Assembly: GCA_031377605.1 (NCBI GenBank)
Contig: JANMFB010000277.1
Span: 1-49,109 of the forward strand
Direction: 5' to 3'
Length of the DNA: 49,109 bases
From: Ferruginibacter sp.
Lineage (GTDB): Bacteria; Bacteroidota; Bacteroidia; Chitinophagales; Chitinophagaceae
Positions 4,622 through 45,301 of this stretch are shown in pieces. Numbering within the stretch: the stretch's first letter is position 1; each line of letters starts with the position of its first letter. The position numbers and the translations under genes were made by a program. The notes beneath the pieces were generated by a model. That model did not search any database, was not told the DNA's origin, and was given only the letters and a program-made list of their open reading frames with translations.

Positions 4622-6691
4622 ATGCAATCTTACACAGAATCTTTAACCACATACAAGCGTTTAAAAACCAGAGAAGTAAAAATAGGAGCCCTATTACTTG
4701 GGGGTAACAATCCTGTGCGTATTCAAACGATGACAACTACAGATACGATGGATACCGCAGCAACAGTAGCGCAAACCATTAGGTGTATAGAAGCAGGTGC
4801 AGAGCTAGTGCGCATCACTGCACCATCGAAAAACGAAGCAGAAAATTTACAGAATATTAAAGATGAATTAAACAAGCTTGGCTATCATATTCCGCTTGTG
4901 GCTGATATACATTTTACACCCAATGCTGCAGAGATAGCAGCAAAAATTGTAGAGAAAGTAAGAGTGAACCCAGGAAACTATGTAGACAAGAAAAAATTTG
5001 AACAAATAGAATATACTGATGCCGAATATGCAGAAGAAATAGAGAGAATTAGAGATCGTTTTACACCGCTTGTGTTAATTTGTAAAGAACATGGAACTGC
5101 CATGCGCATAGGTACAAATCATGGTAGCCTTAGCGATAGAATTATGAGCAGGTATGGAGATACTGCTATTGGTATGGTAGAAAGTGCCATGGAGTTTCTA
5201 CGAATTGCTCGCAGCTTAGATTACCACAATATCGTTTTAAGCATGAAGAGTAGCAATCCGCTTGTAATGGTGCAAGCATATCGGTTGCTCATTACACATA
5301 TGCAAGAAGAATTTGGCGAATGTTATCCGTTGCACCTTGGTGTAACTGAAGCAGGAGATGGCGAAGATGGAAGAATAAAATCTGCTATTGGTATTGGCAG
5401 TTTAATGGAAGATGGTATTGGCGATACAATACGGGTGAGCTTAACAGAAGATCCAGAGTTTGAAATTCCTGTTTGCAAAGATTTGGTGGAGAGGTATGAA
5501 ATGGGCAGTTCACAATTCACAGTTCACAGTTCACAGTTGGCAGTTGATAGTGTACAGGAAACAGTTGGCAGTGTGCAAAATAATGAAACTTCAAAACTTT
5601 CAACTATCAGCCATCAACTATCAACTATCAACTTATGCTACTCTCCCTTTGAATATAAAAGACACACAACAACAGCAGTAAAAAATATTGGTGGTAAAAA
5701 TGTACCAGTAGTATTTGCAGATTTTATGATGGCTAAAAGCATTGTTGCAGCTGACTTAGAAGTGATAGGTTATAAATACGATGATGCTACGGACAAATGG
5801 AATATTGGAGATGCTGCGGCAGATTATTTGTACACAGCAGATAAATTAATAAACTTTGCATTGCCTGGCACACTTAATTTTATTTGTAATTATAAGATAT
5901 GGGAAGCAGCTACAACAGATACACAAAAATGTTTCCCCCTATATACTGCCTATGAATTTATCGGCGCAATGAAAATACACGATACATTAAATTTTGTTGG
6001 TGTAAATGTAGATGATGACAACAATGCGCTTATTAAAAAAATAGCTGACCAAAATAATATAGTGCTTTGCATTTATTCTGAAAGGAAAAACGCTATGCAG
6101 CAAATGAGGATTTTTGTAAACGAATTGATGAGCAAAAAAATAAATTGCCCAATTATAATTTCTGTTGAAAGTTCTCAAAACAATATTGATTCACAATTAA
6201 TTTCTTTTAGTGCAACAGCTGGCGGATTGTTGTTAGATGGAATGGGTGATGGTATTTGGCTCATGAATGACCCCACAAAAATTACCAATGATGTAATGAG
6301 CGGCAGAACGTACTTACCTATAAAAAATAACCATCAGTTTTTAAATAATACCTCATTTTCTATTTTGCAGGCTGTACGAACCCGTATTTCCAAAACAGAA
6401 TACATCAGTTGCCCAAGCTGTGGTAGGACGTTGTTTGATTTACAAGAAACTACATCTAAAATAAGAAATGTAACCAACCATCTTAAAGGATTAAAGATTG
6501 CCATAATGGGCTGTATTGTAAATGGCCCAGGAGAAATGGCTGATGCAGATTTTGGCTATGTAGGTAGCGGTACTGACAAAATAACTTTGTACAAAGGAAA
6601 AGAAGTGATGAAAAAGAACATCAGTAGTGAAATTGCAGTAGATGAATTAATTCTTTTGTTGAAAGAAAGTGGTGTATGGATAGATGCCTAG
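4622..6691 (+). CDS. ispG: (E)-4-hydroxy-3-methylbut-2-enyl-diphosphate synthase, long form
   Basis: PLVADIHF, RVNPGN, RIGTNHGSLS, HLGVTEAG, SCPSCGRT and MGCIVNGPGE motifs, with an extra middle domain. Confidence 0.97.
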   Translation: MQSYTESLTTYKRLKTREVKIGALLLGGNNPVRIQTMTTTDTMDTAATVAQTIRCIEAGAELVRITAPSKNEAENLQNIKDELNKLGYHIPLVADIHFTPNAAEIAAKIVEKVRVNPGNYVDKKKFEQIEYTDAEYAEEIERIRDRFTPLVLICKEHGTAMRIGTNHGSLSDRIMSRYGDTAIGMVESAMEFLRIARSLDYHNIVLSMKSSNPLVMVQAYRLLITHMQEEFGECYPLHLGVTEAGDGEDGRIKSAIGIGSLMEDGIGDTIRVSLTEDPEFEIPVCKDLVERYEMGSSQFTVHSSQLAVDSVQETVGSVQNNETSKLSTISHQLSTINLCYSPFEYKRHTTTAVKNIGGKNVPVVFADFMMAKSIVAADLEVIGYKYDDATDKWNIGDAAADYLYTADKLINFALPGTLNFICNYKIWEAATTDTQKCFPLYTAYEFIGAMKIHDTLNFVGVNVDDDNNALIKKIADQNNIVLCIYSERKNAMQQMRIFVNELMSKKINCPIIISVESSQNNIDSQLISFSATAGGLLLDGMGDGIWLMNDPTKITNDVMSGRTYLPIKNNHQFLNNTSFSILQAVRTRISKTEYISCPSCGRTLFDLQETTSKIRNVTNHLKGLKIAIMGCIVNGPGEMADADFGYVGSGTDKITLYKGKEVMKKNISSEIAVDELILLLKESGVWIDA
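5504..5636. repeat. In-frame inverted pair of degenerate 7-nt tandem arrays inside ispG
   Basis: Left arm: GGCAGTT CACAATT CACAGTT CACAGTT CACAGTT GGCAGTT GATAGTG TACAGGA AACAGTT GGCAGTG (5504-5573). Right arm: AACTTTC AACTATC AGCCATC AACTATC AACTATC AACTTAT (5595-5636). Confidence 0.9.
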
Positions 6692-6758
6692 GATTTTACC
6701 ACCCAAACAAAAAGTCGATAAGTTTTCATTGGTACTATAGGTTTACCATTATTATAAC

Positions 6759-6876
6759 TATGTGTCTGACAGCTTACTTGAAACATCGAAAAATTCAAAC
6801 CTCTTAGCTGTTATATGTGTCTGACAGCTTACTTGAAACAACGGAAAATTCAAACCTCTTAGCTGTCTGACACATA
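6759..6876. repeat. 55-bp tandem duplication of a palindromic REP/MITE-like element
   Basis: TATGTGTCTGACAGCTTACTTGAAACA...CCTCTTAGCTGT starts at both 6759 and 6814. The second copy closes with AGCTGTCTGACACATA, a 15/16 inverted match to its own start. Confidence 0.85.
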
Positions 6877-7002
6877 CAAGCGAGGGATTAAACCTTGCAA
6901 AATAAAATAATATATTATTTTTGTAACTTTCAATTCCAACTGTGCGTATAACAAGAAATAAATAACAAAATGTAATCTTTTTATAACCTGTTTACCAACT
7001 GC

Positions 7003-7488
7003 ATGACCGAAAAAGACTATAACGAATGTGTAAAATTATATGCAGATAATGTATATCGTTTCATCTTAAAGAATCTTAAAAACAAAGAAGATTCTAAAGA
7101 TGTGGTGCAGACAACTTTTGAGAAAATGTGGGTGAATAGGCTAACGGTTGATAATGATAAATGTAAGAGTTTTCTATTTACGGTGGCATATAACTCAATG
7201 ATTGATCATATTAGAAAAAATAAAAGAACTGTATTAAAAGAGGATTTTTCTGAAACTGCTTTGGGTAGTAGTAACCAAGCCTACAATACAAAAAGAATTT
7301 TACAAGAAGCATTGGGCAAGTTGAGTGAGAGAGATAGAAGTTTGGTTATGCTAAAAGATTATGAAGGATATAACTATGCAGAAATTGGAGAAATAACGCA
7401 ATTAAATGAAAGCCAAGTGAAAGTGTATTTGCATAGGGCAAGATTACAATTGAAAGAATATATTGTGAAGGTAGAAAATGTGATTTAA
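7003..7488 (+). CDS. ECF-type RNA polymerase sigma factor
   Basis: Region 2 (DVVQTTFEKMW) and region 4 (GYNYAEIGEITQLNESQVKVYLHRAR); 161 aa. Confidence 0.92.
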   Translation: MTEKDYNECVKLYADNVYRFILKNLKNKEDSKDVVQTTFEKMWVNRLTVDNDKCKSFLFTVAYNSMIDHIRKNKRTVLKEDFSETALGSSNQAYNTKRILQEALGKLSERDRSLVMLKDYEGYNYAEIGEITQLNESQVKVYLHRARLQLKEYIVKVENVI

Positions 7489-7618
7489 AGTTTTACAGAA
7501 CTGCAAAGACGCAAAGACCCTGAGTGGTAGAAATAAATAATTTAAATCAAATAATTATAAAAATATAATCGTTGGATGTTGGCGGCAAAATCGCTCAAGT
7601 AAAAATTAAAATATAAAA

Positions 7619-8737
7619 ATGCTCATTAACCGAAATAATTACGAAGACTTTTTTCTGCTTTATGCAGATGATGAGCTGAGTGCATATGAGCGTGAGGCAG
7701 TAGAAAAATTTGTGACTGTAAACGAAGATTTGAGGGTGGAATTAGAAATGATTCAAGCAGCTATTTTAACACCTGACGAAATAACGCTTACCGACAAAAG
7801 CTTTTTATATAAAGAAACTATTTTTAATACTGAATTTCAAGAAAAGTTACTATTAAAACTAGATGATGAATTATCAATAAATGAGTCGGCAGATATAGAT
7901 TCGTTACTGCAAAAAAACCGCAAAGTACAAACTGAGTATAATCAGCTTCTAAAAGCAAAATTAGACGCCTGCGAAAAAATAATTTTTCAAGAAAAGCATT
8001 TGTTATATAAAAAAGAAAAAGACAATGTAGTAATATTTGGTTACTTAAGATGGGCTGCTGCAGCTATTATTATTGGCATTGCATTATTTACAGGAATAAA
8101 ATTATACAACAATAAAAATGATCGTGAATCAGAATTAGTAATTAATCCTATAAAATCAATAAAGCCAACTAAAAATATAAATGAAGATGAGAAAAAAATG
8201 CTTGTTGAAAATGTAATCGAAAAAACGGTAGCAGTAAGAAATAATATCAAAACAAAATCAACCAACAATAAATTAATCATTGATGATAAAATAAAAAATA
8301 ACTCAAAAAATATTGTAACAAATACAAAAGACAAACGTATAATAAACAATAACAGCATCAATGAATTAAAAGAACTTAAAAACAACAATAACCAGTTTAT
8401 AGCAAAAGAGGATAGAATAAAACTTTTAGAAAAATTAGTGCCAAAAGAACTTACAAAAGAGAACGTAGTTATAGCTAAAAATAATTTGAAAGTAGTAAGT
8501 AAGATTGAAGAAAATATAAAACCTTTAGAAGATACATATAAAGACGCAGTGGCAGTAAACAATATAAGTGAAGAAGATAAAAATGAAAATAAAATTCTTT
8601 ACATGAGTGAGGAAAATGTAAAAAAATCTAAAGTGGGAGGTTTTTTTAGAAAAATAAAAAGATTTGTAGAACGTACAGCAAATGTAAAAACAGGAAACAC
8701 ATTACAAATAGCAGGCTTTGAAATAGCTGCAAAATAA
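7619..8737 (+). CDS. Putative anti-sigma-like single-pass membrane protein
   Basis: Follows the ECF sigma gene; INRNNYEDFFLLYADDELS N-terminus, TM segment WAAAAIIIGIALF and a low-complexity K/N-rich C-terminal region. Confidence 0.6.
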   Translation: MLINRNNYEDFFLLYADDELSAYEREAVEKFVTVNEDLRVELEMIQAAILTPDEITLTDKSFLYKETIFNTEFQEKLLLKLDDELSINESADIDSLLQKNRKVQTEYNQLLKAKLDACEKIIFQEKHLLYKKEKDNVVIFGYLRWAAAAIIIGIALFTGIKLYNNKNDRESELVINPIKSIKPTKNINEDEKKMLVENVIEKTVAVRNNIKTKSTNNKLIIDDKIKNNSKNIVTNTKDKRIINNNSINELKELKNNNNQFIAKEDRIKLLEKLVPKELTKENVVIAKNNLKVVSKIEENIKPLEDTYKDAVAVNNISEEDKNENKILYMSEENVKKSKVGGFFRKIKRFVERTANVKTGNTLQIAGFEIAAK

Positions 8738-8767
8738 TCAACACAATTTATAATTAAAACTAAGAAA

Positions 8768-9655
8768 ATGAAAAAGCTTTATTTTTTAGCGGCTCTTTGC
8801 GCTTTCACTTCAACAATTTTTGCTCAGCAAAAATCCGAAACCGATTCAACCATTGTTAAAAAAAGCAATAACGATACTATTCGTATTGGTAGCATTCTTA
8901 TCATTAAAAAAAATAAAAGAAGCAACAATGATTCCATGACTATTATTAAAGATGGTAGCGAAGTAAAACGAAATAAAAAAACCAGTACCAACTATTTTAT
9001 TGTTGATGTAGGTTTTGCAAATTGGGATGATCAAACCAACTATTCTCCTACTCCATCAAATATCATAAATAGGCCCGGCACGCCAGGTTTTAATGGAGAA
9101 GATTTAAAATTGAGAGGCGGTAAAAGCGCCAATGTGAATCTTTGGATTTTTATGCAAAAAATTAAATTGGCAAAAGAGAACGTAAATCTAAAATATGGAT
9201 TGGGCGTTGAATGGCATAATTATAATTTTCGTTCGCAAACTAGCTTTAGAGAATCTGGCATATTGCCAAACGGCTCAGGCTTAGGAACAAACGCACCTTT
9301 CATTTTTAGAGATTCTATTTCCTTCAGCAAAAACAAATTAAATCTTAAATATGTATCTGTTCCGTTGATGTTAAACTTTGCTACCAATAAGAAAAAAGGA
9401 ACCCCAAGATTGAGTGCAAGTATTGGTGTAAGTGCAGGTTATTTAATTAGAGAAAGGAATAAGCAAAATAGCAACGATAGAGGTAAGCAAAAAAATCAAG
9501 GGGACTATGATTTGGAACGCTTTAAATTTAGTTATATAGGAGAGCTTGGGCTAGGCCCGGTAAGGTTATACGGTTCTTACAGTCCTAAATCAATTTTTGA
9601 AAAGGGTTTAAATATTCGTCCATATGCTTTGGGAGTAAGATTTAGCAATTGGTAA
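8768..9655 (+). CDS. Outer membrane beta-barrel protein
   Basis: Signal peptide, alternating beta-strand pattern (KYVSVPLMLNF, YALGVRF) and an aromatic C-terminus. Confidence 0.7.
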   Translation: MKKLYFLAALCAFTSTIFAQQKSETDSTIVKKSNNDTIRIGSILIIKKNKRSNNDSMTIIKDGSEVKRNKKTSTNYFIVDVGFANWDDQTNYSPTPSNIINRPGTPGFNGEDLKLRGGKSANVNLWIFMQKIKLAKENVNLKYGLGVEWHNYNFRSQTSFRESGILPNGSGLGTNAPFIFRDSISFSKNKLNLKYVSVPLMLNFATNKKKGTPRLSASIGVSAGYLIRERNKQNSNDRGKQKNQGDYDLERFKFSYIGELGLGPVRLYGSYSPKSIFEKGLNIRPYALGVRFSNW

Positions 9656-9677
9656 TTCCAATAAAGAATAAATTAAT

Positions 9678-9789
9678 AAGGCAGCACAAAACAACTCAAA
9701 TTTGTACGTAAGGATTTACAAATTTGAACTAAATCGTTAGATATATTTCTACAAAAAAATCTAACTGTTGATTGTTTTGAGGCTGCCTT
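9678..9789. repeat. Nested inverted-repeat element, possibly acting as a terminator
   Basis: AAGGCAGCACAAAACAA (9678) and TTGTTTTGAGGCTGCCTT (ending 9789, then a T-run) enclose the perfect 10-bp IR CAAATTTGTA/TACAAATTTG (9697-9726). Confidence 0.65.
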
Positions 9790-9926
9790 TTTATATAGAA
9801 AATCTTTTATTGCCAATTACAATTTTTATAACATTTTCGTGTTTTACTATTTTGTATTTTTAGAGTCAGAAATCCATTGTTTATTGTAAAGTACATATTG
9901 TAATGTAGCAATCTAAAAGGCCCAAC

Positions 9927-10508
9927 ATGAAAAACACTCTAATTATTGGCATAATTGCTTTCATTTGCGTAACAGTACTCTCCTCTTTTGAGCCTGTAAC
10001 TAAAAACTTTCGTTCTTTAACGAAACGAGCAGGAGTTAAAAAATCCTTTAGGCTTAGAGGTGCAATAAATCCGTATTCAATTATTATTTTAAAAAAGAAA
10101 TATGAATTACAAGTTTTTGATGAAGAAGGTTGGTATGAAACCTACCCAATTGTATTTGGCAGCAAAGATCTTGGGGATAAAATGAGAGAAGGAGACAGAA
10201 GAACCCCAACAGGAAGTTTTAAAATAATCATGAAAAAGGTAAATAAAAGATGGGGACAAGAGTTGTTGTTAGATTATCCGAATGAAGAAAGTGTGCGTCG
10301 ATTTAAAGAGAGAAAAGCAAAAGGATTAATTGCTGCAAATGCCCGTATAGGTGATGGTATAGCTATACATGCTACACGCAAGGAGGAAGAGTGGACTATA
10401 GATAATTTTTACAATTGGACAGACGGTTGTATCTCTATAAAATATTCTGAAATGCAAGAGTTGTATGATTTTATACCAGTGGGAACACCTGTTACGATTC
10501 AGCCTTAG
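9927..10508 (+). CDS. L,D-transpeptidase (YkuD) family protein
   Basis: KMREGDRRTPTG and IAIH...WTDGCI (catalytic His/Cys); signal peptide. Confidence 0.88.
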   Translation: MKNTLIIGIIAFICVTVLSSFEPVTKNFRSLTKRAGVKKSFRLRGAINPYSIIILKKKYELQVFDEEGWYETYPIVFGSKDLGDKMREGDRRTPTGSFKIIMKKVNKRWGQELLLDYPNEESVRRFKERKAKGLIAANARIGDGIAIHATRKEEEWTIDNFYNWTDGCISIKYSEMQELYDFIPVGTPVTIQP

Positions 10509-11730
10509 CATTAATGTAAATCAAACTACTATCCCCATAACTTAAAAAACGAAAGTTTTTTTGCAAAGCATATTCATACATTTTTTTCCAATCACCACCA
10601 ATAGCTGCAGCTATAAGTAGCAATAAAGTAGATTTTGGCTGGTGAAAATTTGTAACCAACATATTTGCAATACGAAACGTATAGCCCGGTGCAATTAAGA
10701 TTTGCGTTTGAGTAAAGATATTTTCCAATTTATTTTCCTCCATCCATTCAATTAAAGCAGCTAGTACATCATTAGCATTTATGGGATTGCGGTTATTCTC
10801 TTCGGCATAAGCATCCCATTGTGTAATTATTAAGTCTTTCGCTTCTTTATTCTTAAGTATTCTCAATCCTATCCAATACAATGTTTCTATTGTTCGAAGA
10901 GATGTAGTACCTACTGCAGTAATTCTCCCAAGATTATGCTTTATGGTTTTAATCGTTTCTATGTTTACATCAATATACTCTGCATGCATTTCATGCTCAG
11001 CCATCGTATTTGCTTTTACGGGCTTAAATGTGCCCGCTCCTACATGTAAGGTTACGTATGCTTTATTTATATTTTTATTGGATAATTTTTTAAAAACGTT
11101 TTCAGAAAAATGCAAACCTGCAGTAGGTGCAGCTACGGATCCATCGTGGGCTGCATAAATAGTTTGATATCTACTTATGTCCTCTTTTTCAGTATTTCGT
11201 TTTATATATGGAGGCAACGGAACAAATCCCGCAGTTTCAATAATTTCCGCAAAAGTAAAATGTGTAGGCTGCCAAGCAAATTCAATAATAAATGCTTCTG
11301 TAATTTTTTCTACTTTAGTTGCTTTTAAAATCACTTTTTCGTTGCCTATCTCCATTTGCTTTTCAAGATAATCTTCTTTCCATTTAGCAGCACCACCTAC
11401 CAAACATTTCCATCTACTTACCTTTTTACGTAGCATTATACTGCTATACTCCGTAATATTTCCATAGGGCTCTAAGCAAAAAATTTCAATAGTAGAACCA
11501 TTGGTTTTAGTAAATTTTATTCTAGCATTTATAACTCTAGAATTATTAAAAACGAGTAAGCTATTTTCCTTCAAATGGGTATCAATATTTGCAAATGTGG
11601 ATTCGCTTATGTTGCCATTTTTATACAATAGTAATTTTGATGCGTCCCTTTCCGCTAGTGGATGCAAAGCAATTCGCTCATCTGGCAAATTGTAATCATA
11701 ATCATTGATAGATATTTCTTGTGGAATCAT
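10492..11730 (-). CDS. queA: S-adenosylmethionine:tRNA ribosyltransferase-isomerase
   Basis: YDYNLPDERIA, PLPPYI, YQTIYA, GSVAAPTAGLHF, TLHVGAGTF, VGTTSLR, TNFHQPKST and FLSYGD motifs. Confidence 0.95.
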   Translation of the reverse strand: MIPQEISINDYDYNLPDERIALHPLAERDASKLLLYKNGNISESTFANIDTHLKENSLLVFNNSRVINARIKFTKTNGSTIEIFCLEPYGNITEYSSIMLRKKVSRWKCLVGGAAKWKEDYLEKQMEIGNEKVILKATKVEKITEAFIIEFAWQPTHFTFAEIIETAGFVPLPPYIKRNTEKEDISRYQTIYAAHDGSVAAPTAGLHFSENVFKKLSNKNINKAYVTLHVGAGTFKPVKANTMAEHEMHAEYIDVNIETIKTIKHNLGRITAVGTTSLRTIETLYWIGLRILKNKEAKDLIITQWDAYAEENNRNPINANDVLAALIEWMEENKLENIFTQTQILIAPGYTFRIANMLVTNFHQPKSTLLLLIAAAIGGDWKKMYEYALQKNFRFLSYGDSSLIYINAKAES

Positions 11731-12665
11731 TATTTTAAAAATTCAGTTACAGAAGCCACCCATTTTTCATGTTCGTTTGCACAAAGAGATTGGTGCCCTG
11801 AGTTTTCATATACAACTAGCTTTTTAGGACTAGTAATATTTGCATAAACTTCGTTTGTTTCTTTTTGAGAAACTCTAGGGTCATTTTTGCCCCATTGCAC
11901 AAGGACAGGACATTTTATTTTTTTTACGTATTCTGTAGGTTTCATATTAAAGGCCCAGAAGCCATGCTCTACTCCACCCCAAAATGTTAACAAAACAGAA
12001 ATAGGTTGTGCTGGCAAGCCCATCATTTTCACTCGGCCTACCACTGCATCTGATAAAGAACCAAATGGCATTTCTAAAATAATTTTATTTGGCGTAAGTA
12101 GATAATCATTCATAGCTTTTGATACTGCCGATGCACCCATAGATATTCCCCAAAGTGTGATATTTTTTTCACCTTTTTGACTTAGATAATCATATGCAGC
12201 CTTTACATCATCGCTTTCATTTGCGCCTATAGTGCATGTATTACCTTCACTATTTCCATGCGCTCTAAAATCTATAAGTAGGGTATTGTACCCAAGGGTT
12301 CTAAAAGATTTTGCCTCTTCTAAAATGGCTGATTTTTTACTTCCATGACCATGAAACATAGCGACAGTTCCTTTTGCATTGGGAACAGAAATTATCCAAG
12401 CATCCAATTTTAACCCATCGGTAGTAGCCAACTTTATATCTTGATATGTACTATCGGGTGCAATATTTTTTTGTTTAATAGCATTTATACCAAAAAGTAT
12501 TTCTTTGGTAATATCCCATTTCGTTTTATCCTGTTGCTTTTTTATTGTTACTTCATTTGGCTCATAAAAATGGGTAAACTTATAGGCATGAAATATTACA
12601 ACCACATTTAATAAAATAAAAAGTACTAAGAAGCCTCTGAGAATATACTTTAGAATTTTTTTCAT
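11730..12665 (-). CDS. Alpha/beta fold hydrolase, membrane-anchored
   Basis: FHGHG, DFRAHGNSEG, GISMG nucleophile elbow, DPRV and GH; translationally coupled to queA. Confidence 0.85.
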   Translation of the reverse strand: MKKILKYILRGFLVLFILLNVVVIFHAYKFTHFYEPNEVTIKKQQDKTKWDITKEILFGINAIKQKNIAPDSTYQDIKLATTDGLKLDAWIISVPNAKGTVAMFHGHGSKKSAILEEAKSFRTLGYNTLLIDFRAHGNSEGNTCTIGANESDDVKAAYDYLSQKGEKNITLWGISMGASAVSKAMNDYLLTPNKIILEMPFGSLSDAVVGRVKMMGLPAQPISVLLTFWGGVEHGFWAFNMKPTEYVKKIKCPVLVQWGKNDPRVSQKETNEVYANITSPKKLVVYENSGHQSLCANEHEKWVASVTEFLK

Positions 12666-12860
12666 GCTGTAAATATATAAATTTTATGCTTGAATTATTA
12701 GGGAGTTAGTTTTAATGTAATCGCTTACTAAAATACTTCAATCCTCGTATTTTCATTTTTCTTCTTGAGCTTTTGGCAAAACATTCTGATATACCTTAGC
12801 CATTTATGGCTTACTTTAAAAACTTACTTTAATAGTATCTTTGTAACCTAATCTTTACAC

Positions 12861-14471: not shown

Positions 14472-14569
14472 TATTTTGTATTATCAAGTGACTGACTGCT
14501 TATTCGAGACACCCAAAGGGTAGATGCATGAATCTGTCTTATACATAGCTTACTTGGTATCCTTCACCG

Positions 14570-14666
14570 TGTGTATTCGTAATAGTCCAATTGCATTGGC
14601 CTAAACGACTACTAGAGCGGCATTAAACAGAAAGTCAATTGGACTACATATCGATATAATTGGTAT
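14570..14666. repeat. 97-bp dispersed palindromic element, copy 1
   Basis: Perfect 11-bp IR TAGTCCAATTG (14583) / CAATTGGACTA (ending 14646). Ungapped inverted match to 26396-26492, about 13 mismatches by hand count. Confidence 0.9.
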
Positions 14667-14712
14667 TAGAGCCTTTGTGGTTCAAAAAAACTTTAGATTA
14701 TATTTGCAAACT

Positions 14713-15615: not shown

Positions 15616-15633
15616 TAAATTATATTTACCATC

Positions 15634-16347: not shown

Positions 16348-16349
16348 GT

Positions 16350-17159: not shown

Positions 17160-17212
17160 AAAAAAAATTTAAATTAATCCTTAACTATATTTTCGCATCA
17201 GAGTCATAGTGT

Positions 17213-17311
17213 TATTTCTAATATCTCCAATCTATTTTTTTCAATTCTTATGTCTTAATACTATTGTTTTAAGTCGCCAATCTTGCGTGTCAAATCTTAC
17301 GTTTTTTGCCT
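17213..17311. repeat. Degenerate 7-nt tandem array (NNAATCT-type) spanning the pyrD stop codon
   Basis: TATTTCT AATATCT CCAATCT ... TATGTCT TAATACT ATTGTTT TAAGTCG CCAATCT TGCGTGT CAAATCT TACGTTT TTTGCCT. Confidence 0.65.
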
Positions 17312-18529
17312 ATTTGCGGCAAGATAAGAAGTAATTTTTTTAACTATTGCAGGTCCTTCGTACACAAAGCCTGTCCACACTTGCACTAGCGATGCGCCAG
17401 CTTTCAATTTTTCTGCTGCATCTTCGCCTGTAAAAATACCTCCACTTGCCATAATCGGAATGGTGTTATTTGTTTGTTTGGCAATGTATGAGATCATTTC
17501 TGTTGCCCTTTGCTTTATAGGTAAGCCACTTAATCCTCCGAGTCCTATTGCCTCGAGTTGCGAATTAGGTGTTATTAAATTGGTCCTATCTAAGCTTGTA
17601 TTTGCCACTACCAATCCATCTAATTTTATTTCCAACGCTAAACTAATTACATCGTCAATTTGTGTTTGTGTAAGATCTGGTGCAATTTTTAAAAGAATAG
17701 GTTTTAGTAAAGTAGTTGAAGGTTGAAGGTTTGTGGAGTTTTCAGCCTCAGCTTGTTGAAAACCATTCTTTGTACTTAATTCCTCATTCTTAGTTTTTAA
17801 CTTTAAAAGAATTTTGCGAAGGCTTTCTTTTTCCTGCAATTCCCTTAAACCAGGCGTGTTTGGGCTGCTTACATTTACTACAAAATAATCTACATAAGGG
17901 TGAAGCGCAATGAAACAAGTTTCATAGTCTTTCCATGCATCTTCGTTGGGTGTAATTTTATTTTTTCCAATGTTGCCACCGATTATCAGCGGGCAGTGGG
18001 CAGTGGGCAGTGGGTTCTCAATTTGCAAACTTTCTTTTGCCAACTGTAAATTGTCAATTGCCAATTGCCCAAAGCCAACCTCCAACCGCCAACGCTTAAG
18101 ACGTTCCGCTACAACATCTACCCCATCGTTATTAAATCCCATTCTATTAATAAGCGCTTTATCTTTTGGCAATCTAAAAAGCCGCGTTTTAGTATTGCCT
18201 TCTTGAGCTAAAGGAGTTACCGTTCCTATCTCTACAAATCCAAAACCGAGGGCTTCTAATTCGTTCAAATATTTTGCGTTTTTATCGAAGCCTGCTGCTA
18301 GGCCAACAGGATTTTTAAAAGGAAGTTGTAAAAGTGTCGAATGTCGAGTGTCGGATTTCGGGTTATTTAACTCGTAACTTCCCACTCGTAACTCGTAACC
18401 TTTGTAATGTTTAGCAATTATATTTTTTATAAACTTTACACTGCAAAGAAACTTCAAACCATTCATAGAGAAATGGTGCACTTTTTCAGCATCGAACATG
18501 AAAAGGAAACTGCGAAGGAGATTATACAT
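17297..18529 (-). CDS. pyrD: Quinone-dependent dihydroorotate dehydrogenase (class 2) with repeat-derived insertions
   Basis: NPVGLAAGFDKN, GTVTP, NRMGFNN, NIGKN, VNVSSPNTPGLR, LKIAPD and GGLSG motifs; 410 aa. Confidence 0.96.
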   Translation of the reverse strand: MYNLLRSFLFMFDAEKVHHFSMNGLKFLCSVKFIKNIIAKHYKGYELRVGSYELNNPKSDTRHSTLLQLPFKNPVGLAAGFDKNAKYLNELEALGFGFVEIGTVTPLAQEGNTKTRLFRLPKDKALINRMGFNNDGVDVVAERLKRWRLEVGFGQLAIDNLQLAKESLQIENPLPTAHCPLIIGGNIGKNKITPNEDAWKDYETCFIALHPYVDYFVVNVSSPNTPGLRELQEKESLRKILLKLKTKNEELSTKNGFQQAEAENSTNLQPSTTLLKPILLKIAPDLTQTQIDDVISLALEIKLDGLVVANTSLDRTNLITPNSQLEAIGLGGLSGLPIKQRATEMISYIAKQTNNTIPIMASGGIFTGEDAAEKLKAGASLVQVWTGFVYEGPAIVKKITSYLAANRQKT

Positions 18530-18636
18530 AATTGCTGCAAATATAAACCATCCTTTTTTTTATTAATTGTTTTAAATTTCTATCTTTGAACTAGAAAGTT
18601 GCATAAACAACTATTATAAATTTAAAAAATACGCTC

Positions 18637-26395: not shown

Positions 26396-26492
26396 ATACC
26401 AATTATATGGGAATGTAGTCCAATTAACTTTCAGTATAATGCCGCTTTAGTAGTCATTTAGGACAATACAATTGGACCATTATGAATAAACA
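26396..26492. repeat. 97-bp dispersed palindromic element, copy 2 (inverted relative to copy 1)
   Basis: GTAGTCCAATTAAC...ACAATTGGACC; the reverse complement aligns to 14570-14666. Confidence 0.9.
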
Positions 26493-27540: not shown

Positions 27541-27565
27541 TTTTTTTGTTTTTTAAAATTAAGAA

Positions 27566-29089: not shown

Positions 29090-29102
29090 AATTATTTTAA
29101 AT

Positions 29103-32201: not shown

Positions 32202-32345
32202 GAGTTAAGAATTAATAATTAATGAAACGTAAAAATAAGGATAATTTTTTTAACATAAAATTTTTGTTAAATTAATTTTTTGTTTACCCTAGTATGATAA
32301 TGACATTCTATTATATGCTTACGCTGCATAAAACTAAAAAAAAAG

Positions 32346-35269: not shown

Positions 35270-35416
35270 TAAAATTTAAAACAAATTAAGTAAATTAATT
35301 AAAAGAATAAAGTATAAGGGTTAAATTATGTGCTATGAATTAAGCTATCTTAATTCAACCAATCAAAAAAGCAATGGCAATTGTTTTAAGTGAAGATTGT
35401 TTGATACTTTTGCGCC

Positions 35417-36292
35417 ATGCAAATATTAGATGGAAAAATAGTTTCAGAATCAGTAAAAATCTCCATTAAAGACCGTACTCATCTTTATAAAACAACTACG
35501 GGAATAACACCACACCTGGTAGCGGTTTTAATTGGGAATAATGGCGCAAGTGAAACATATGTTGCTAGTAAAATAAGAAATTGTGCTGATGTGGGTTTTA
35601 AAAGTTCCCTTATTCGTTTTAATACGGATGTTACAGAAAAAGAAATCACAGATTGTATTATTAAATTAAACGAAGATGATGATGTACATGGCATTCTTGT
35701 TCAGCTTCCTTTGCCAAAACACTTTAATGAATCGTTGATTATAGATTTAATAAATCCAATAAAAGACGTAGATGGCTTTCATCCCATAAGTGTAGGAAAA
35801 ATGGTACAAGGTTTGGACAGCTTTGTACCTGCAACACCGCTTGGCATAATGTTGATGCTTAAATATTACAACATAGAAACTTCCGGTAAAAACGCAGTAG
35901 TAATAGGCAGAAGCAATATCGTAGGGAGGCCAATGAGTATTTTGCTAAGTCAAAATACAAATCCTGGAAATTGTACTGTAACACTTTGTCACAGTCGCAC
36001 AAAAGATTTGGAAAAAATTTGTAAAGAAGCAGATATCATTGTAGCAGCACTAGGCATACCAGGTTTTCTTACTGCTGATATGGTAAAAGATGGTGCCGTT
36101 GTAATAGATGTTGGTATAACAAGGGTTGCAGACCCTGCAAAAAAATCTGGCTTTGCGATAAAAGGCGATGTAGATTTTGAAAATGTAGCGCCAAAATGTG
36201 CTTATATAACGCCTGTACCTGGTGGTGTAGGATTAATGACGATTGCAGCGCTTCTGGAAAATACACTAAAGGCGGCGGGATTTAAGGGTTGA
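35417..36292 (+). CDS. folD: Bifunctional methylenetetrahydrofolate dehydrogenase/cyclohydrolase
   Basis: LDGK, GILVQLPLP, KDVDGFHP, GRSNIVGRP and TPVPGGVG motifs. Confidence 0.97.
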   Translation: MQILDGKIVSESVKISIKDRTHLYKTTTGITPHLVAVLIGNNGASETYVASKIRNCADVGFKSSLIRFNTDVTEKEITDCIIKLNEDDDVHGILVQLPLPKHFNESLIIDLINPIKDVDGFHPISVGKMVQGLDSFVPATPLGIMLMLKYYNIETSGKNAVVIGRSNIVGRPMSILLSQNTNPGNCTVTLCHSRTKDLEKICKEADIIVAALGIPGFLTADMVKDGAVVIDVGITRVADPAKKSGFAIKGDVDFENVAPKCAYITPVPGGVGLMTIAALLENTLKAAGFKG

Positions 36293-36347
36293 AGATGGTT
36301 GAAGGGTTGAACATAGTTGAAGGTGGTTTAAGGGTTTAGGAGTTTAG
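36286..36347. repeat. Degenerate GGTTGAAG-type tandem array overlapping the folD stop
   Basis: GGGTTGAAGATGGTTGAAGGGTTGAACATAGTTGAAGGTGGTTTAAGGGTTTAGGAGTTTAG, with an 8-10 nt period. Confidence 0.75.
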
Positions 36348-36452
36348 TAGGGCTAATACATATTTTGGAAATTTTAAAATATTTCTTGTTTTTGGAAATA
36401 AAATTTGAGTGATTTTTATTTTTGAAAAATTCACTCACAAAAAAAGATTAGT

Positions 36453-37049: not shown

Positions 37050-37136
37050 TTTATTTCACAATTAATTTACAATTCTAGTCTAAGTTTTGGCGTAATAATT
37101 TTATAAAAGTTATCTTCATAAAAATAATTTTAGAAG

Positions 37137-39056: not shown

Positions 39057-39081
39057 TTTTTGTATTATTGCTTTTACATTT

Positions 39082-40179
39082 ATGAGCAAAGATTTACTTT
39101 ATCAAATAGCACTCACACTCGTACCTAATATTGGCGACGTACGTGCAAAAGCATTGGTAGAACATTTTGGTGATGCTGAAAAAATATTCAAGATTTCTAA
39201 AAGTAATTTAGAAAAAATAGAAGGTATTGGTACAATTGCAGCAAATTCAATAAAACATTTCAATGACTTTAAAATTTGTGAAAATGAAATTGCCTTTATA
39301 GAAAAAAATAAAATTTCACCTCTTTTTATTACAGATGACAACTATCCGCAGCGGTTATTAAACTGCTACGACAGTCCTACCATGCTATATTACAAAGGAA
39401 ATGCAGATTTAAATAATCCTAAAATTATTTCTGTTGTAGGCACAAGAAGTAATTCTGATTATGGTAAATCTGTTTGTGAAAAATTAATAGCAGACTTGGC
39501 CAGTGAAAATATTTTAGTACTTAGCGGCCTTGCATTTGGCATTGATAGTATAGCACACAAAGCTTCCTTAAAAAATAACATCAAAACAGTGGGCGTAATG
39601 GCACATGGGTTAGATAAAATTTATCCTGCTCAAAATAAATCTTTGGCAAAAGAAATGCTATCTCATGGAGGTTTACTTACAGATTTTATGAGTGGCACTA
39701 ATCCAGATAGGCAGAATTTTCCTCGTAGAAATAGAATTGTAGCAGGCATGTGTGATGCCCTTATTGTAATAGAAAGTAGCGCAAAAGGTGGTTCACTTAT
39801 TACAGCAGAACTTGCAAATAGTTACAACAAAGACGTATTTGCAATACCTGGCAGAGTAACTGATGCAAGGAGTGAAGGTTGCAATTATCTGATAAAAAAC
39901 AATAAATCACTGCTTATAACCAGTGCCGAAGATTTAATGGATATTATGAATTGGAAAGCGGCTCCAATAAAAATAAAGAAACAAAAAGAGCTTTTTATAG
40001 AACTTACAGCAGATGAAAAAGTAATCATATCTATTCTACAGTCACAGGAAAATATACAAATAGACCAATTGTATTTTAAAAGTGGTTTGAGTAGTAGTGC
40101 GGTGGCACAAGCATTATTGATGTTAGAAATGCAAGGGGTTGTAACGGCTTTACCCGGGAAGGTTTTTAAGATGAGCTGA
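39082..40179 (+). CDS. dprA: DNA-processing protein DprA
   Basis: VVGTR, SGLAFGID, FPRRNRIVAG, GGSLITA and VFAIPGR motifs with a C-terminal wHTH. Confidence 0.96.
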   Translation: MSKDLLYQIALTLVPNIGDVRAKALVEHFGDAEKIFKISKSNLEKIEGIGTIAANSIKHFNDFKICENEIAFIEKNKISPLFITDDNYPQRLLNCYDSPTMLYYKGNADLNNPKIISVVGTRSNSDYGKSVCEKLIADLASENILVLSGLAFGIDSIAHKASLKNNIKTVGVMAHGLDKIYPAQNKSLAKEMLSHGGLLTDFMSGTNPDRQNFPRRNRIVAGMCDALIVIESSAKGGSLITAELANSYNKDVFAIPGRVTDARSEGCNYLIKNNKSLLITSAEDLMDIMNWKAAPIKIKKQKELFIELTADEKVIISILQSQENIQIDQLYFKSGLSSSAVAQALLMLEMQGVVTALPGKVFKMS

Positions 40180-40180
40180 G

Positions 40181-40299
40181 GAAGACGTTATATATTAGAT
40201 TTCAGATACTAAGTAAAATACAGCACTCCCTTCTTCTTTAATCTTAAAATCGAAGCTTACGATTCAAATCTTTTGTCTCAAATCTTGTGTCTTGTCTCT
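40181..40299. repeat. Inverted pair of degenerate 7-nt arrays between dprA and guaB
   Basis: Left arm: GAAGACG TTATATA TTAGATT TCAGATA. Right arm: CAAATCT TTTGTCT CAAATCT TGTGTCT TGTCTCT (40265-40299). Confidence 0.7.
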
Positions 40300-40318
40300 T
40301 TTGTATTTATCTTTGCCT

Positions 40319-41812
40319 ATGGCAACTAAAAAATCTCCCACAAACATTTTCACAAACAAATTTTTTGGCGAAGGGCTCACTTTCGACGACATTTTACTAG
40401 TACCTGCTTACTCGCAAGTTTTACCTCGTGATGTGAACATACAAACCATGCTCACAAAGAACATTAAGCTAAATGTTCCTTTATTAAGTGCAGCCATGGA
40501 TACTGTTACAGAAGCAACTTTGGCAATAGCACTTGCCAGAGAAGGAGGGCTTGGCATCTTACATAAAAACATGAGTATAGAGCAGCAGGCAGACCAAGTA
40601 CGTAAGGTAAAAAGAAGTGAAAATGGGCTCATTTTAGATCCGATAACGCTTACTGCTGAAGCAACTGTAGGTGAAGCAATGCGCATAATGGCCGAAAATA
40701 AAATTGGTGGTATTCCAATTGTAGACGCTACCAATAAATTGATTGGAATATTAACAAATAGAGATTTAAGATTCGAAATAAATAAAAAAATAAAAGTGAG
40801 TGAGGTAATGACTAAAGAAAACCTCATTACTGCACCGGAAGGAACTGATTTAAAAAAAGCAGAATTAATTTTCAAGAAAAATAAAATAGAAAAATTACCT
40901 GTTGTTAACAAGCAAGGTAAACTCATAGGGTTGGTAACTTTTGGAGATATTTTAAAACTAAAAAGTCACCCAAATGCGGTAAAAGATTCTTTCGGAAGAT
41001 TAATTGTAGGAGCAGGTGTAGGTATAACAAATGATACCATGCTACGAGTAGAATCTCTTTACAAAGCAGGTGTAGATATTATTTGTTTGGATAGTGCCCA
41101 TGGCCATACAAAAGGCGTGATAGACATGTTGAAAGTCATCAAAAAAGCATACAAAGATCTAGATGTAATAGCAGGGAATATTGCTACTGCAGATGGTGCA
41201 CTTGCACTAGCAAACGCGGGTGCAGATGCTATAAAAGTAGGTATTGGTCCTGGTTCTATTTGTACTACAAGAATTGTAGCAGGTACTGGTGTTCCACAAA
41301 TTACAGCTGTATTGGAAGCTGCAAAAGCACTGAGTAAAAAAAATATTGGTATTATAAGTGATGGTGGCATCCGTTACACAGGCGATATGGTAAAGGCATT
41401 ATCTGCAGGTGCATCATGCGTAATGATGGGCAACATGTTTGCAGGTACAGAAGAAAGCCCGGGAGAAACTATAATCTATGAGGGAAGAAAATTTAAACAA
41501 TACAGGGGCATGGGTTCGCTTGGTGCAATGGCACAAGGTAGTAGTGACAGATATTTTCAAGATGTAGAAGATGACATAAAAAAGTTTGTACCTGAGGGTA
41601 TAGAAGGACGTGTGGCCTTTAAAGGAAGCTTGAAGGAAGTAGTACATCAGTTTACAGGAGGATTAAAGGCTGGCATGGGCTACTGTGGTGCAGCAGATAT
41701 TAAAGCGCTGCAACGAGATTCAAAATTTGTAAAAATTACAAGCTCGGGTATTACAGAAAGCCATGCACATGACATTGCTATCACAAAAGAAGCACCAAAT
41801 TATAGTAGGTAA
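40319..41812 (+). CDS. guaB: IMP dehydrogenase
   Basis: [13 protein letters not shown], a CBS pair, [10 protein letters not shown] and YRGMGS; likely ATG at 40319 after TATCTTTG. Confidence 0.97.
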
Positions 41813-42036
41813 AAACGTTCCGCTTTTTGTATGATTTGGTTATTAGCATTTAATCTTCATGGCATCTCCATAGGCAAGATTTCTTTGTTATGTTTTTCAT
41901 TTTGGGGGAAAAGAAAAAGATAATCACTATTGATCATTATATCTTTTCTCATCATTTATTATGGTGTAGTATTATGCAAGTTGATTTTAAAATTATTTAC
42001 CAAGGATTACCACTTTTATAGTTCAATTCATTTAAA

Positions 42037-42477
42037 ATGGCGATGAAACTTAAAATAGACAACGAAACGCTGATTGAAGAATTCTTCGAAAACACTTGTC
42101 TATTGGGCATAGTTGCTCCTATGAAAGATTATTTAATAACATGGCATATAAATCAGTCACTAGGTTTTAATTTTAAAATAAATCACGGTATAGAAATAAA
42201 ACTAATCAAGAAAGAACGTACTTATTATTTCTCTATGTACGAATTTTTAGTACCAGGTTCTCAAATGGTACATTATTTATACAACAACCAAGATGATGGA
42301 GAATATCTATTGCCCGAGTTTAAACACTTAGATTTTCTTTGGTTAGCAAAAGGAGAGCAAATGGAAAGGCAAGAAGTGCAAAGCTTACAACAATCTTTGA
42401 GAACTATACCAAGCGTACAATTGGTTACAGAAATGACTAATGAAAAAATAAAGAACAAACAATTTTTAATTTTTTAG
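42037..42477 (+). CDS. IPExxxVDY-like family protein
   Basis: LLGI..P.KDY...W.IN..L and YLLPEFKHLDF motifs with a K.K..LIF terminus. Confidence 0.7.
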   Translation: MAMKLKIDNETLIEEFFENTCLLGIVAPMKDYLITWHINQSLGFNFKINHGIEIKLIKKERTYYFSMYEFLVPGSQMVHYLYNNQDDGEYLLPEFKHLDFLWLAKGEQMERQEVQSLQQSLRTIPSVQLVTEMTNEKIKNKQFLIF

Positions 42478-42535
42478 GAGCAAAAATATCCTTTCAAAAA
42501 TGCAAAACAAATCTTAATTTACATAAAAGAAAATT

Positions 42536-42766
42536 ATGTGGAAAGAAGAAGACAATAAACTTTACAAGAAATTTAAATTTACAGATTTTTCAGAAGCGTT
42601 TGCTTTTATGACAAGGGTTGCAATACTTGCAGAAAAAGCAGACCATCATCCTACTTGGCAAAATACGTACAATGTAGTAGAGATATGGCTTAGCACGCAC
42701 GACAAAAACAATACAGTTACAGAAAAAGACAGAAAGCTTTCTAATGCAATAGATGCGTTACTATAA
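42536..42766 (+). CDS. Pterin-4-alpha-carbinolamine dehydratase
   Basis: F.F.DF.EAF.FM..VA..AE..DHHP.W.N.Y..V.I.L.THD motif. Confidence 0.92.
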
Positions 42767-42866
42767 AAATACTTTGAATTATTAAAGTGATTTTTGAAAT
42801 TGAATAGAATAAATTTTGAGGCTGAAACAGTTTCGCACATGCGTTTTTCTGTCCTTACAACTTAAT

Positions 42867-43763
42867 TTATTCTACTTCTACTTGCTTTTTTGAAACTGCA
42901 CCCTCAAAAACCTCAGGGATAAAAACCCTACTATATGGATTGTATCCATTTCCTTTCTCTAGAAAATGTACCCGCATGTTTTCTATACTTATCGGACTAC
43001 CATCAGGAATATCAGCAATATTGCTGTGTTTAATATCATGCCCATCTAAAATTACCACCAAACCACTTCCTATAGCCTCCATTGTTTTCCCGTCTCTTAT
43101 AAGCACTCCTGTGTCTTCACCTAGCCCTATACCTATACAAGAAGGATTACTTGAAACTGCTTGAGCTAGCCTACCAAAACGTCCTCTTTTTTCAAAATGA
43201 GAATCAAATATCACATCATCCATAAACCCAAGCCCGGTTGTTATTTTTACTTCACCTTTTAAATGTGCTTTTGCTGCATTGCCTTCATAAATCATTGTAT
43301 TACTCATTGCCATAGCACCTGCGGAAGTACCCGCTACCAAAAAGTTTATTTCATTGTGATAACGTTCTAACAGGATTTGTAAAAAAGCAGTGCCACCAAA
43401 TGTAGTCGTAAGCCTTAATTGATTACCACCTGTAAACATAAGTGCATCACAGTTTCTGAGGCGCTCAATATAAGTTTCATCGGCTGCATCGTGCCTATTT
43501 CTTATGTGCATAAGGCCTATATTTATACAGCCAATTTTGCTAAAAGCATTGAGGTAATACTCTCCTACTTCTAATGGTATCATACTAGCAGTTGTAATTA
43601 CTTCAATTCTTTTTGTATTACCACCTACTTCTTCTACAATTCTTTTTAATATACCAAGCTCATAAAAATTGAGGTTATGCTGTAATAATTTTACAGTTTC
43701 GAGGTCTGTTCCTTTATCTTCCGCTCCGCCAATGGCTACGAGTTTTCCTTTTGGAAATTCCAT
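42867..43763 (-). CDS. cphB: Cyanophycinase (peptidase S51)
   Basis: IGGAEDK, TGGNQLRL, GTSAGA, DSHF..RGR.GRL and GIGLGEDT motifs. Confidence 0.88.
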   Translation of the reverse strand: MEFPKGKLVAIGGAEDKGTDLETVKLLQHNLNFYELGILKRIVEEVGGNTKRIEVITTASMIPLEVGEYYLNAFSKIGCINIGLMHIRNRHDAADETYIERLRNCDALMFTGGNQLRLTTTFGGTAFLQILLERYHNEINFLVAGTSAGAMAMSNTMIYEGNAAKAHLKGEVKITTGLGFMDDVIFDSHFEKRGRFGRLAQAVSSNPSCIGIGLGEDTGVLIRDGKTMEAIGSGLVVILDGHDIKHSNIADIPDGSPISIENMRVHFLEKGNGYNPYSRVFIPEVFEGAVSKKQVEVE

Positions 43764-43957
43764 GTATATCCGAGTTATGGTTAGTGCAAAAATAACGGTA
43801 ATGACTGTATATTATTTTATTGTTATCAACTTAATGTTAATTATTAACGTAGATTTTAGTTAATACCCAAATAATATCAGTGGAATTCATATATAAACAA
43901 TTTTCCATTATTGAATATTTTTTGATTGAAAAAAACTAAAACACTTAATTTGCAGCT

Positions 43958-44788
43958 ATGCAACAATACCATTCTTTGCTCAAAAGTATTATTGAAACTG
44001 GCTGTGATAAAGCAGATCGAACAGGCACAGGCACAAGAAGTATCTTTGGGTATCAAATGAGATTCAATTTAGCCGAAGGATTCCCATTGGTTACAACCAA
44101 AAAAGTACACTTAAAAAGCATAATACACGAGTTACTTTGGTTTTTGCAAGGCGATACAAACATTGCTTATCTTAAGGAGCACAATGTAAAAATATGGGAT
44201 GAATGGGCAGACGAAAATGGTAATCTTGGCCCTGTGTATGGCAAGCAATGGAGAAATTGGTCCGCAGGATCCGGCGGAGAAGGTTCAAATGGGGAAGAAA
44301 TAGACCAAGTAAAAGATGTAATTAATCAACTAAAAAATAACCCTGATAGCAGAAGAATAATCATAAGTGCATGGAATGTGGCAGACTTGCCGAAAATGAA
44401 ACTTATGCCGTGCCATTGTCTATTTCAATTTTATACAGGTGCGCCAAATGCTGACGGAAGAAGAAAGTTAAGCTGTCAATTGTACCAAAGAAGTGCAGAT
44501 GTATTCCTTGGAGTACCTTTTAACATTGCATCGTATGCATTACTTACAATGTTGATAGCTCAAGTATGCGATATGGATTTGGGAGATTTTGTGCACACTT
44601 TTGGCGATGTACATTTATATAGCAATCATTTTGAGCAAGCCAATTTGCAATTAACTAGAACTCCATTTCCTTTGCCACAAATGAAAATAAATAAAGAGGT
44701 TAAAGATATTTTTAGTTTCAAGTACGAAGATTTCGAACTATTAAACTACCAAAGTCATGAAGCTATAAAAGCACCTGTAGCTGTGTAA
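43958..44788 (+). CDS. thyA: Thymidylate synthase
   Basis: [38 protein letters not shown] and GVPFNIASY motifs. Confidence 0.98.
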
Positions 44789-44883
44789 GGAAATGTAAAA
44801 GGCGAAGTTCGTAAAATAAGAATTGTAAATAAAGTATGATAAATCTAATTTCAGATTTAAATAATACTAATAATAATTACGAA

Positions 44884-45282
44884 ATGAATGAAAGAAAATA
44901 TGATTTAGGGGAGAGGTTAGTTTCTTTCGTTTGTTTAATTCTAGAAGTATGTGATTTGTTACCAAACTCCAAAGCAGGCCAAAATCTTGAACATAAATTG
45001 TCAAAAAGCGGTACTTCTCCGGCTTTATATAATGGTGAGGCTCAAGCAGCAGAATCAAAACAAGATTTTATACACAAAATGAAAATATGTTTAAAGGAAC
45101 TTAGAGAAACAAAAATAACGCCTCGAATAATAATTCAAAAATCTCTAATAGTAAATGAAAAGCTAGAAATTATTTTGAAAGAGTGCAATGAATTGATTGC
45201 AATATTTGCCTCAAGCATAGAAACTACAAAGAGAAATCTCATAATAAAAAATAATTTGTTCATTAGAAACTTTAGCATTTAA
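44884..45282 (+). CDS. Four helix bundle protein (23S rRNA intervening-sequence protein / TIGR02436-like), possibly degenerate
   Basis: YDLxERL..F, SGTSPAL..GEAQAAES..DFIHKMKI.LKELRET and LKECNELIAIF motifs; probable start MNERKYDL at 44884 (the ORF is open from 44836). Confidence 0.88.
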   Translation: MNERKYDLGERLVSFVCLILEVCDLLPNSKAGQNLEHKLSKSGTSPALYNGEAQAAESKQDFIHKMKICLKELRETKITPRIIIQKSLIVNEKLEIILKECNELIAIFASSIETTKRNLIIKNNLFIRNFSI

Positions 45283-45301
45283 CATTCTACATTTAATATT
45301 T

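Follow-up and report, generated by a model that had tools for sequence, protein, structure and literature searches.

The 49,109-nucleotide stretch analyzed here (the window) is positions 1 to 49,109, forward strand, of contig JANMFB010000277.1 from a Ferruginibacter sp. assembly (GCA_031377605.1). It carries tandem arrays of seven-nucleotide units inside ispG and pyrD, between dprA and guaB, and around a four-helix-bundle protein gene that lies between thyA and folA. A preliminary description had noted at these sites a purine-rich arm followed by a roughly complementary, pyrimidine-rich arm, and had proposed that arms and gene form one system. We call the gene with its two arms a cassette. The window is contig C15 of the 3.24-Mb assembly, which is 95.8% complete. 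Gene names in the window were assigned by NCBIfam, and the identities given earlier to dprA, guaB, thyA and folA hold. For loci outside the window, era, der, accB and accC are names that we presume from reading their translations. Orthologues were compared among the best 30 matches of 61 genomes for each gene.

Period-7 arrays in the window number 12, 8 and 4 at scores of 9, 10 and 13, whereas 100 shuffles give expectations of 0.56, 0.18 and 0.02. The same strong excess is found in the whole genome, where 44 arrays reach score 13 (0 to 2 in five shuffles). Among the periods of 4 to 14 scanned there, period 7 is conspicuous; counts at this score are 0 for period 5, 6 for period 6, 18 for period 8, 7 for period 9, 0 for period 10 and 1 for period 11.

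The arm pairs described earlier differ in quality (Table 1). Those in ispG (complementarity p<0.001, fold z -1.6), at pyrD site 1 (fold z -2.6, a periodicity of 5 bp and 2x2 loops, alignment p 0.08) and at pyrD site 2 (complementarity p 0.024, fold z -2.1) are upheld, with both arms periodic in each. The dprA-guaB pair is decayed, with moderately periodic arms (complementarity p 0.14, fold z -0.1). At pyrD site 3, only the right arm (AACCTTC) is periodic, and the left part is neither periodic nor complementary (p 0.93, z +0.9). The single-arm array reported across the pyrD stop is weak. Arms had also been placed on both sides of the four-helix-bundle gene; the right one is clear (p 0.002) and the left one is decayed, with a fold z of +0.9 for the pair, and clear arms occur at the same site in two relatives (L076 and L091). 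The guaB right arm ends just upstream of a TAnnTTTG motif (40308-40318), which most relatives retain beside the start codon and which we take to be the Bacteroidota -7 promoter box.

Table 1. Positions of arrays and associated genes in the window.
Feature	Position	Strand	Remarks
ispG	4622-6691		identity confirmed by NCBIfam
ispG left purine-rich arm, in frame	5506..5577	+	unit drifts from CAGTTCA through CAGTTGG to AGTTGAT
ispG right arm (AACTATC)	5586..5633	+	21-nt shorter variant in close strains
Decayed single left-type arm across pyrD stop	17205..17310	-	weak; lag-7 identity 0.39 (p 0.055), lag-14 identity 0.52
pyrD	17297-18529		identity confirmed by NCBIfam
pyrD site 3 insert	17708..17795	-	+63 nt; seen in no other of the 29 rows
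pyrD site 2 arm pair (CAATTGG / CCCACTG)	17984..18097	-	about +75 nt relative to shortest genus alleles
pyrD site 1 arm pair (AGTTACG / CACTCGA), in frame	18330..18402	-	+42 nt relative to modal allele
Short right-type 7-mer arm	32202..32223	-	ends at start codon of 1032-aa TonB-linked receptor gene; absent from the preliminary description
Left-type arm, mixed period 8-10	36284..36350	+	starts at folD stop; absent from the preliminary description
Gene-less decayed arm pair, dprA-guaB	40180..40310	+	relatives have other units or none
thyA-folA cassette left arm, decayed	44786..44832	+	begins at thyA stop; not periodic alone (p 0.70)
Four-helix-bundle gene (TIGR02436/PF05635)	44836..45282	+	open frame; likely start 44884
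thyA-folA right arm (TTTAACA/TTCTACA)	45262..45302	+	overlaps cassette gene stop; ends at folA start

The protein encoded between thyA and folA belongs to the four-helix-bundle family, as had been proposed: it scores 58.9 bits with TIGR02436 (cut-off 24) and 34.1 with PF05635 (cut-off 33.8), and by sequence it matches PDB entry 2rld, which has five chains (E 1.8e-10). A single-sequence structure model was too poor to use (predicted local distance difference test score, pLDDT, 38.7), and the fold search was uninformative. This copy of the gene has substitutions at positions common to its orthologues. TIGR02436 has 11 matches in this genome, at ten loci, and at least one locus occurs in 54 of the 61 genomes.

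Periodic arms are associated with these genes well beyond the window. Among a first set of 38 TIGR02436 loci, both flanks are periodic at 19, compared with 1.5% of 1887 control ORFs (open reading frames), and at 19 loci the left flank is matched best by its own right flank. Thus, the association and the site-specific symmetry of the arms, both put forward in the preliminary description, are borne out family-wide, as is the layout of inverted ends around an S23p-type ORF, which is weak for the window copy, whose own partner ranks only seventh of 38. A larger set of 122 loci, mainly from 150 listed of 336 TIGR02436 matches, gave a similar picture, with 96 of 120 loci above the 95th percentile of controls and the own partner among the top three at 80 of 120. 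At free unit positions, agreement between arms of one site is 0.53-0.80, compared with 0.25-0.35 when arms are swapped (16 sites). When the unit changes at a site, it does so in both arms. Periodic arms are kept by 106 of the 122 cassette genes.

The preliminary description held that the period is conserved and the unit sequence is not, which is only partly right. The purine-rich arms have a loose common core, R-G-W-N-N-T-D (3.45 versus 2.80+-0.09 for column-shuffled controls, 49 arms). Cassette period is 7 at 77 loci, 8 at 18, 9 at 9 and another value at four, including a period of 11 (14 uncalled), so that 27 of the 122 cassettes have period 8 or 9. Arms have a median of 4.4 copies, with 10th and 90th percentiles of about 2.6 and more than 11; with these lengths and periods of 8, 9 and 11, we discarded the idea of a fixed ruler of five subunits times seven bases. 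Some arrays are much longer: perfect heptamer runs of 13-27 units were seen in genome G000 (C145:21-143, C376:4076-4169 and C369:926-1024) and at locus L263 (G016). Some sit near contig ends, and such runs probably break assemblies and may hide cassettes. The left, G- or purine-rich arm follows a stop codon in 20 of 21 cases, the right arm precedes a start codon in 12 of 13, and arm pairs converge in five cases and diverge in none. Runs of three G are absent from most units, which therefore lack G-tracts of the quadruplex type.

Alignment with relatives resolved filled, empty, gene-less and inverted states at the thyA and era-der junctions. Behind thyA (30 loci), there are five short junctions without arms, two gene-less arm pairs (L088 and L089) and three full cassettes (the window, L076 and L091). 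In addition, L074 (G009) has an inverted gene remnant between intact arms, and in L096 (G034) the cassette gene is inverted and another gene lies between thyA and the inverted gene. At a further locus, L194 (G024), the cassette gene is inverted between its arms. At era-der (30 loci), empty junctions measure 8 and 14 nt and the full cassette occurs three times; 13 loci have gene-less period-7 arrays (score at least 11) of many different units, one has an 11-mer pair, and an unrelated palindrome is present in several copies. Gene-less pairs had been suggested to be either empty sites or non-autonomous derivatives of the cassette. Because the true empty junctions have no arms, these pairs are derivatives rather than empty sites, and the era-der series together with the unit sharing described below supports their being non-autonomous relatives.

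Cassettes thus occupy operon junctions as site-specific lineages and have been gained, lost, truncated or inverted between their arms. In a quick tree of the cassette proteins, 72 of the 85 with a site mate have their nearest neighbor at that site. Similarity of unit or period is retained among related proteins from different sites, which implies that cassettes have moved over long times. The only identical pair of cassette genes within one genome in this tree, L158 and L159 (G009, C44), lies 3.3 kb apart and is probably a segment duplication. Of 97 left arms, 53 begin no more than 14 nt from the host stop. For 29 of them, the last base of the stop falls on the A-G core of the arm (about 15 expected; p 0.002, which is too small owing to repeated sites), and the last ten host bases fit the arm better in register (4.0 versus 2.9; the p value is again too small). 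Arms therefore start in register with the host stop, and they can overwrite host sequence at constant length.

Such overwriting is seen inside pyrD, where an array has replaced host sequence at unchanged length at site 1 in 5 of 28 rows of the alignment. Of 30 rows, 11 have a period-7 array (score at least 11) at pyrD site 2; the ispG linker has one in 6 of 29, and the units vary by species. The inserts are not conserved in orthologues. The ispG linker is 56 aa long in this genome versus 24-28 aa in most relatives. In a close strain, its right arm is shorter by 21 nt, or three units, at 5595, on a contig from run X9; a contig from run X3, of another study, has 21 gaps across the same region. 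The depth of the X9 contig is 2.3, so that support for this variant is modest.

Throughout the genome, 21 arrays lie inside 15 ORFs. A sense-strand stop occurs in one of these 21 units, compared with 66 of 124 strands outside genes, in agreement with the earlier argument that retention of the reading frame reflects selection. The host ORFs include those for ValS, MetG, LeuS, PolA, LigA, Mfd, TsaD, MnmH, PbpC and pyruvate dehydrogenase E2. An NCBIfam equivalog cut-off is passed by 12 of the 15 hosts versus 8 of 46 length-weighted controls (p 2e-5). Arrays in frame thus favor conserved genes. Of 60 controls drawn, 46 of the first 51 were used, and counting the five left out as passes gives p 2e-4; with the scan threshold of 1e-45, short control matches may be missed. 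A longer residence of core genes might explain this bias neutrally. In an AlphaFold model based on a 9-row alignment, pyrD residues 46-64, 153-179 and 256-272 (sites 1, 2 and 3) have pLDDT values below 50, as do certain other short segments. Arrays that survive inside genes are stop-free and frame-keeping and lie in predicted loops. A full cassette would break an essential ORF, from which we infer that the in-frame pairs cannot be cassette remnants. GC-rich palindromes, sometimes in frame, were also observed at heptamer-arm positions of era-der (L239, L241, L243, L244 and L246), ispG (L047, L048, L059, L065 and L070) and pyrD site 1 (L014 and L028).

Gene-less pairs and single arms often have the period and unit of a cassette in the same genome. 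Across 20 genomes, each with part of its cassettes in the set, 15 of 56 gene-less arrays match a same-genome cassette arm at 5.5 or more of 7 positions, versus 3.7+-1.8 by chance, although from one to three of these matches may involve remote arms of a cassette. In the Ferruginibacter genome studied here, 17 gene-less arrays are nearest to the era-der arms, which are also matched by the right-arm unit of pyrD site 2, and 11 of 18 period-8 arrays match the single period-8 cassette, at accB-accC. The genomes richest in CAGTKGG (56, 45 and 18 matches) are the three with an era-der cassette; these numbers take in the arms of the cassettes themselves, and in G020 there are just two further loci. 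The two genomes richest in GACSACY (26 and 10 matches) have intact cognate genes; in three whose copies are broken, the unit is matched 0-2 times.

We give a roughly even chance to the interpretation that the arrays belong to a single family of small selfish elements, as arms of the full element or as derivatives without the gene, and that they spread by copying at the DNA level under the guidance of short homology rather than by cut-and-paste. The full form is likely a four-helix-bundle gene between converging 7-base, or sometimes 8- or 9-base, tandem arms. DNA-level copying of this kind fits the inversions, the co-variation of arms, the overwriting at equal length and the in-register starts. 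New arms would be seeded by strand invasion or template switching at sequences that resemble a unit, such as stop codons, and would then grow or shrink by slippage, in 21-nt steps inside genes. Conversion could keep the two arms matched, and selection would filter the products. Of three Y1 transposase matches in the genome, the one transposase family searched for, none is beside a cassette. No target-site duplication was seen by eye between filled and empty junctions, which come from diverged species, and no terminal sequence is conserved among copies, whose units differ between sites and species.

By analogy with Avd, the accessory protein of diversity-generating retroelements, the four-helix-bundle protein is a candidate helper: as a pentamer it might bind arm strands with loose specificity and promote copying in trans. 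This role is suggested by the constant position of the gene, by the link of period and unit to protein clade, and by RNA binding of Avd. A stronger version, which we regard as possible but less likely than not, is that an Avd-like pentamer encoded between its own arms recognizes the periodic A-G core and catalyzes copying of arms into look-alike sites, so that each intact cassette seeds non-autonomous arrays that become new protein loops. A new class of transposase-free mobile DNA would then have produced the orphan heptamers of Xanthomonas, cyanobacteria, Beggiatoa and Bacteroidota, as well as those rRNA intervening sequences that carry an ORF.

Several observations weigh against the selfish-element interpretation or its helper. 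Our analysis is of sequences, and neither binding nor movement was observed in it. In four genomes (G006, G016, G019 and G022), array families have no matching cassette among all TIGR02436 loci; G019 is 94% complete, with nine matches to the 8-mer pattern and eight cassette loci checked, and G022 is 71% complete. Three others (G030, G017 and G059) have arrays without the protein clade tested. The 8-mer protein clade does not co-occur with the 8-mer pattern (3 of 8 versus 4 of 12 genomes), and other members of that clade bear other units. With such counter-examples, we rejected a strict rule of one protein for one unit. Arrays may persist after the gene is lost, may be served by any member of the protein family, or may spread without help. 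The own-genome unit match taken alone is weak (18 of 54 versus 6.9+-6.0, p 0.08; mean similarity p 0.04), the relatives are not independent, and base composition may add to unit sharing. Cassette paralogues in this genome are no more than 32% identical (7 full-length rows), so that recent copying of the full cassette here is rejected. Also, an unrelated palindrome family occupies the same pyrD and ispG loops and the same junctions.

The main rival explanation, possible but in our judgment doubtful, is that the arrays propagate themselves through host slippage, repair and conversion, and that the four-helix-bundle gene is a captured passenger, as in a tiny composite element, with no part in spreading. 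This would account for array families without a matching cassette, for many-unit gene-less pairs at a single junction (the 13 of 30 era-der loci), for the 10 of 122 matched stretches in which the cassette gene is broken, and for the different gene inside the thyA arms of L096. It leaves unexplained why this one gene family is the usual cargo and why its members so commonly keep periodic arms. It also does not predict that period follows protein clade across sites, or that intact and broken genes track array counts in the GACSACY family.

Explanations that act through RNA fare less well. The preliminary description suggested that the arms form periodically mismatched RNA hairpins recognized by the protein, and a related view is that such hairpins are kept for host regulation, with RNase III cutting them, as it does 23S intervening sequences, to split or tune operon mRNAs, and with the protein as a factor that binds the hairpins. 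The Coxiella intervening sequence offers a precedent, in that it has this gene family, upstream heptameric repeats and an RNase III cut (PMC4990558). The cassette gene is co-directional with both neighbors at 90 of 122 loci, and the stems at pyrD site 1 are periodic. However, arm mismatches show no sense-strand G.U bias at 94 loci (140 versus 124, p 0.36), three of the six window pairs fold no better than shuffles and the pairs generally fold weakly, relatives have empty, single-arm and inverted states, and cleavage within ispG or pyrD mRNA would presumably be harmful. We therefore reject selection for RNA hairpins on the wobble test and regard host regulation through them as distinctly unlikely. 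Movement by way of RNA, with a reverse transcriptase and an Avd-like protein acting together as in diversity-generating retroelements, seems very improbable. In its favor, the era-der cassette protein exceeds the bAvd Pfam cut-off (61.8 versus 40), and Avd acts with a reverse transcriptase (10.1101/2023.10.23.563531). Nevertheless, reverse transcriptase PF00078 was not found in this 95.8%-complete genome, on which ground the model and the retroelement link made earlier are rejected; only 7 of 36 genus genomes have it, and the cassette-rich G012, G013, G023, G030 and G035 do not. Transcription polarity was dropped as evidence for an RNA step, because an inverted pair reads alike on both strands and the arm polarity at stops and starts is then uninformative.

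The window, whose low GC content and SusC/SusD-like genes point to Bacteroidota, also has other small repeats. One of these, 99 bp long and dispersed, contains an inverted repeat and is present at 14570-14668 and 26396-26492. It has at least 40 genome copies of 77-100% identity (40 of 65 candidates scored), resembles a miniature inverted-repeat transposable element and bears no relation to the heptamer arms. The region between ispG and a sigma-70 family gene (6759-6880) has a 55-bp segment duplicated in tandem, with ends that make up an inverted repeat; this is possibly another small element. Within thyA (about 44225-44270), an in-frame, non-heptameric loop extension gives 16 residues between anchors, versus 10 in all 29 relatives.

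If correct, the selfish-element interpretation would unite several orphan types of bacterial repeat, and it would offer one testable answer to two old questions: why 7-base tandem repeats are in excess in bacteria and what the widespread four-helix-bundle (S23/IVS) protein does. The data name specific protein-unit pairs in one genome, namely CAGTKGG for the era-der cassette and an 8-base unit for the one at accB-accC. They also show how loops of conserved enzymes, such as tRNA ligases, PolA, LigA, Mfd, IspG and PyrD, can be added or overwritten by repeats whose unit is not a triplet. If the protein drives copying, the elements would constitute a new class.

A literature search, thin on subscription journals and without supplements, found no publication that joins arms, cassette and in-frame arrays. 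The components are known separately, and our comparisons rest on the parts of each report that were accessible. The Coxiella burnetii 23S intervening sequence has a PF05635-family ORF between inverted ends, variable-number heptameric repeats upstream and RNase III cleavage (PMC4990558). Our cassettes share the protein family, the inverted ends and the heptamers; however, they lie at mRNA operon junctions, about ten per genome and with gene-less derivatives, and the window cassette is in thyA-folA rather than in an rRNA gene, with no Rfam match in the window. The heptamers of Xanthomonas (GGGAATC) and Nostoc (GGGGA(C/T)T) form convergent inverted pairs of about four units (70 in Xanthomonas campestris pv. 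campestris, Xcc), with the G-rich arm just after stops and its complement before starts (PMC4692102), which matches the copy number, orientation and placement of the arms reported here. Those genomes each have one unit of the G-quadruplex type, mostly intergenic, whereas here many units coexist and enter proteins; the term 'four helix' is absent from the main text of that report. The TAACTGA repeats of Beggiatoaceae and Bacteroidetes are single direct arrays that end just before starts and may be regulatory (PMC4679880). Their unit fits our right-arm pattern, and neither paired arms nor a cassette is described in the accessible part of that report. Rickettsia palindromic elements are 100-150 bp sequence families inserted in frame in existing genes, possibly at hotspots (summarized in PMC3767692). 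Our in-frame palindromic inserts in conserved genes are similar, but they are arrays in tandem that vary in both unit and length and go with a particular family of cargo genes. Avd forms a pentameric barrel, binds RNA and is similar to the S23-family proteins (10.1101/2023.10.23.563531). It is related to our four-helix protein, although no reverse transcriptase was found here and no pair of template and variable repeats turned up, with no separate search made for one. Set beside the 23S intervening sequences, the Xanthomonas and Beggiatoa heptamers and the Rickettsia elements, what is new here is the series of states at the same site, the sharing of units with its exceptions, and the negative tests of RNA structure and reverse transcription.

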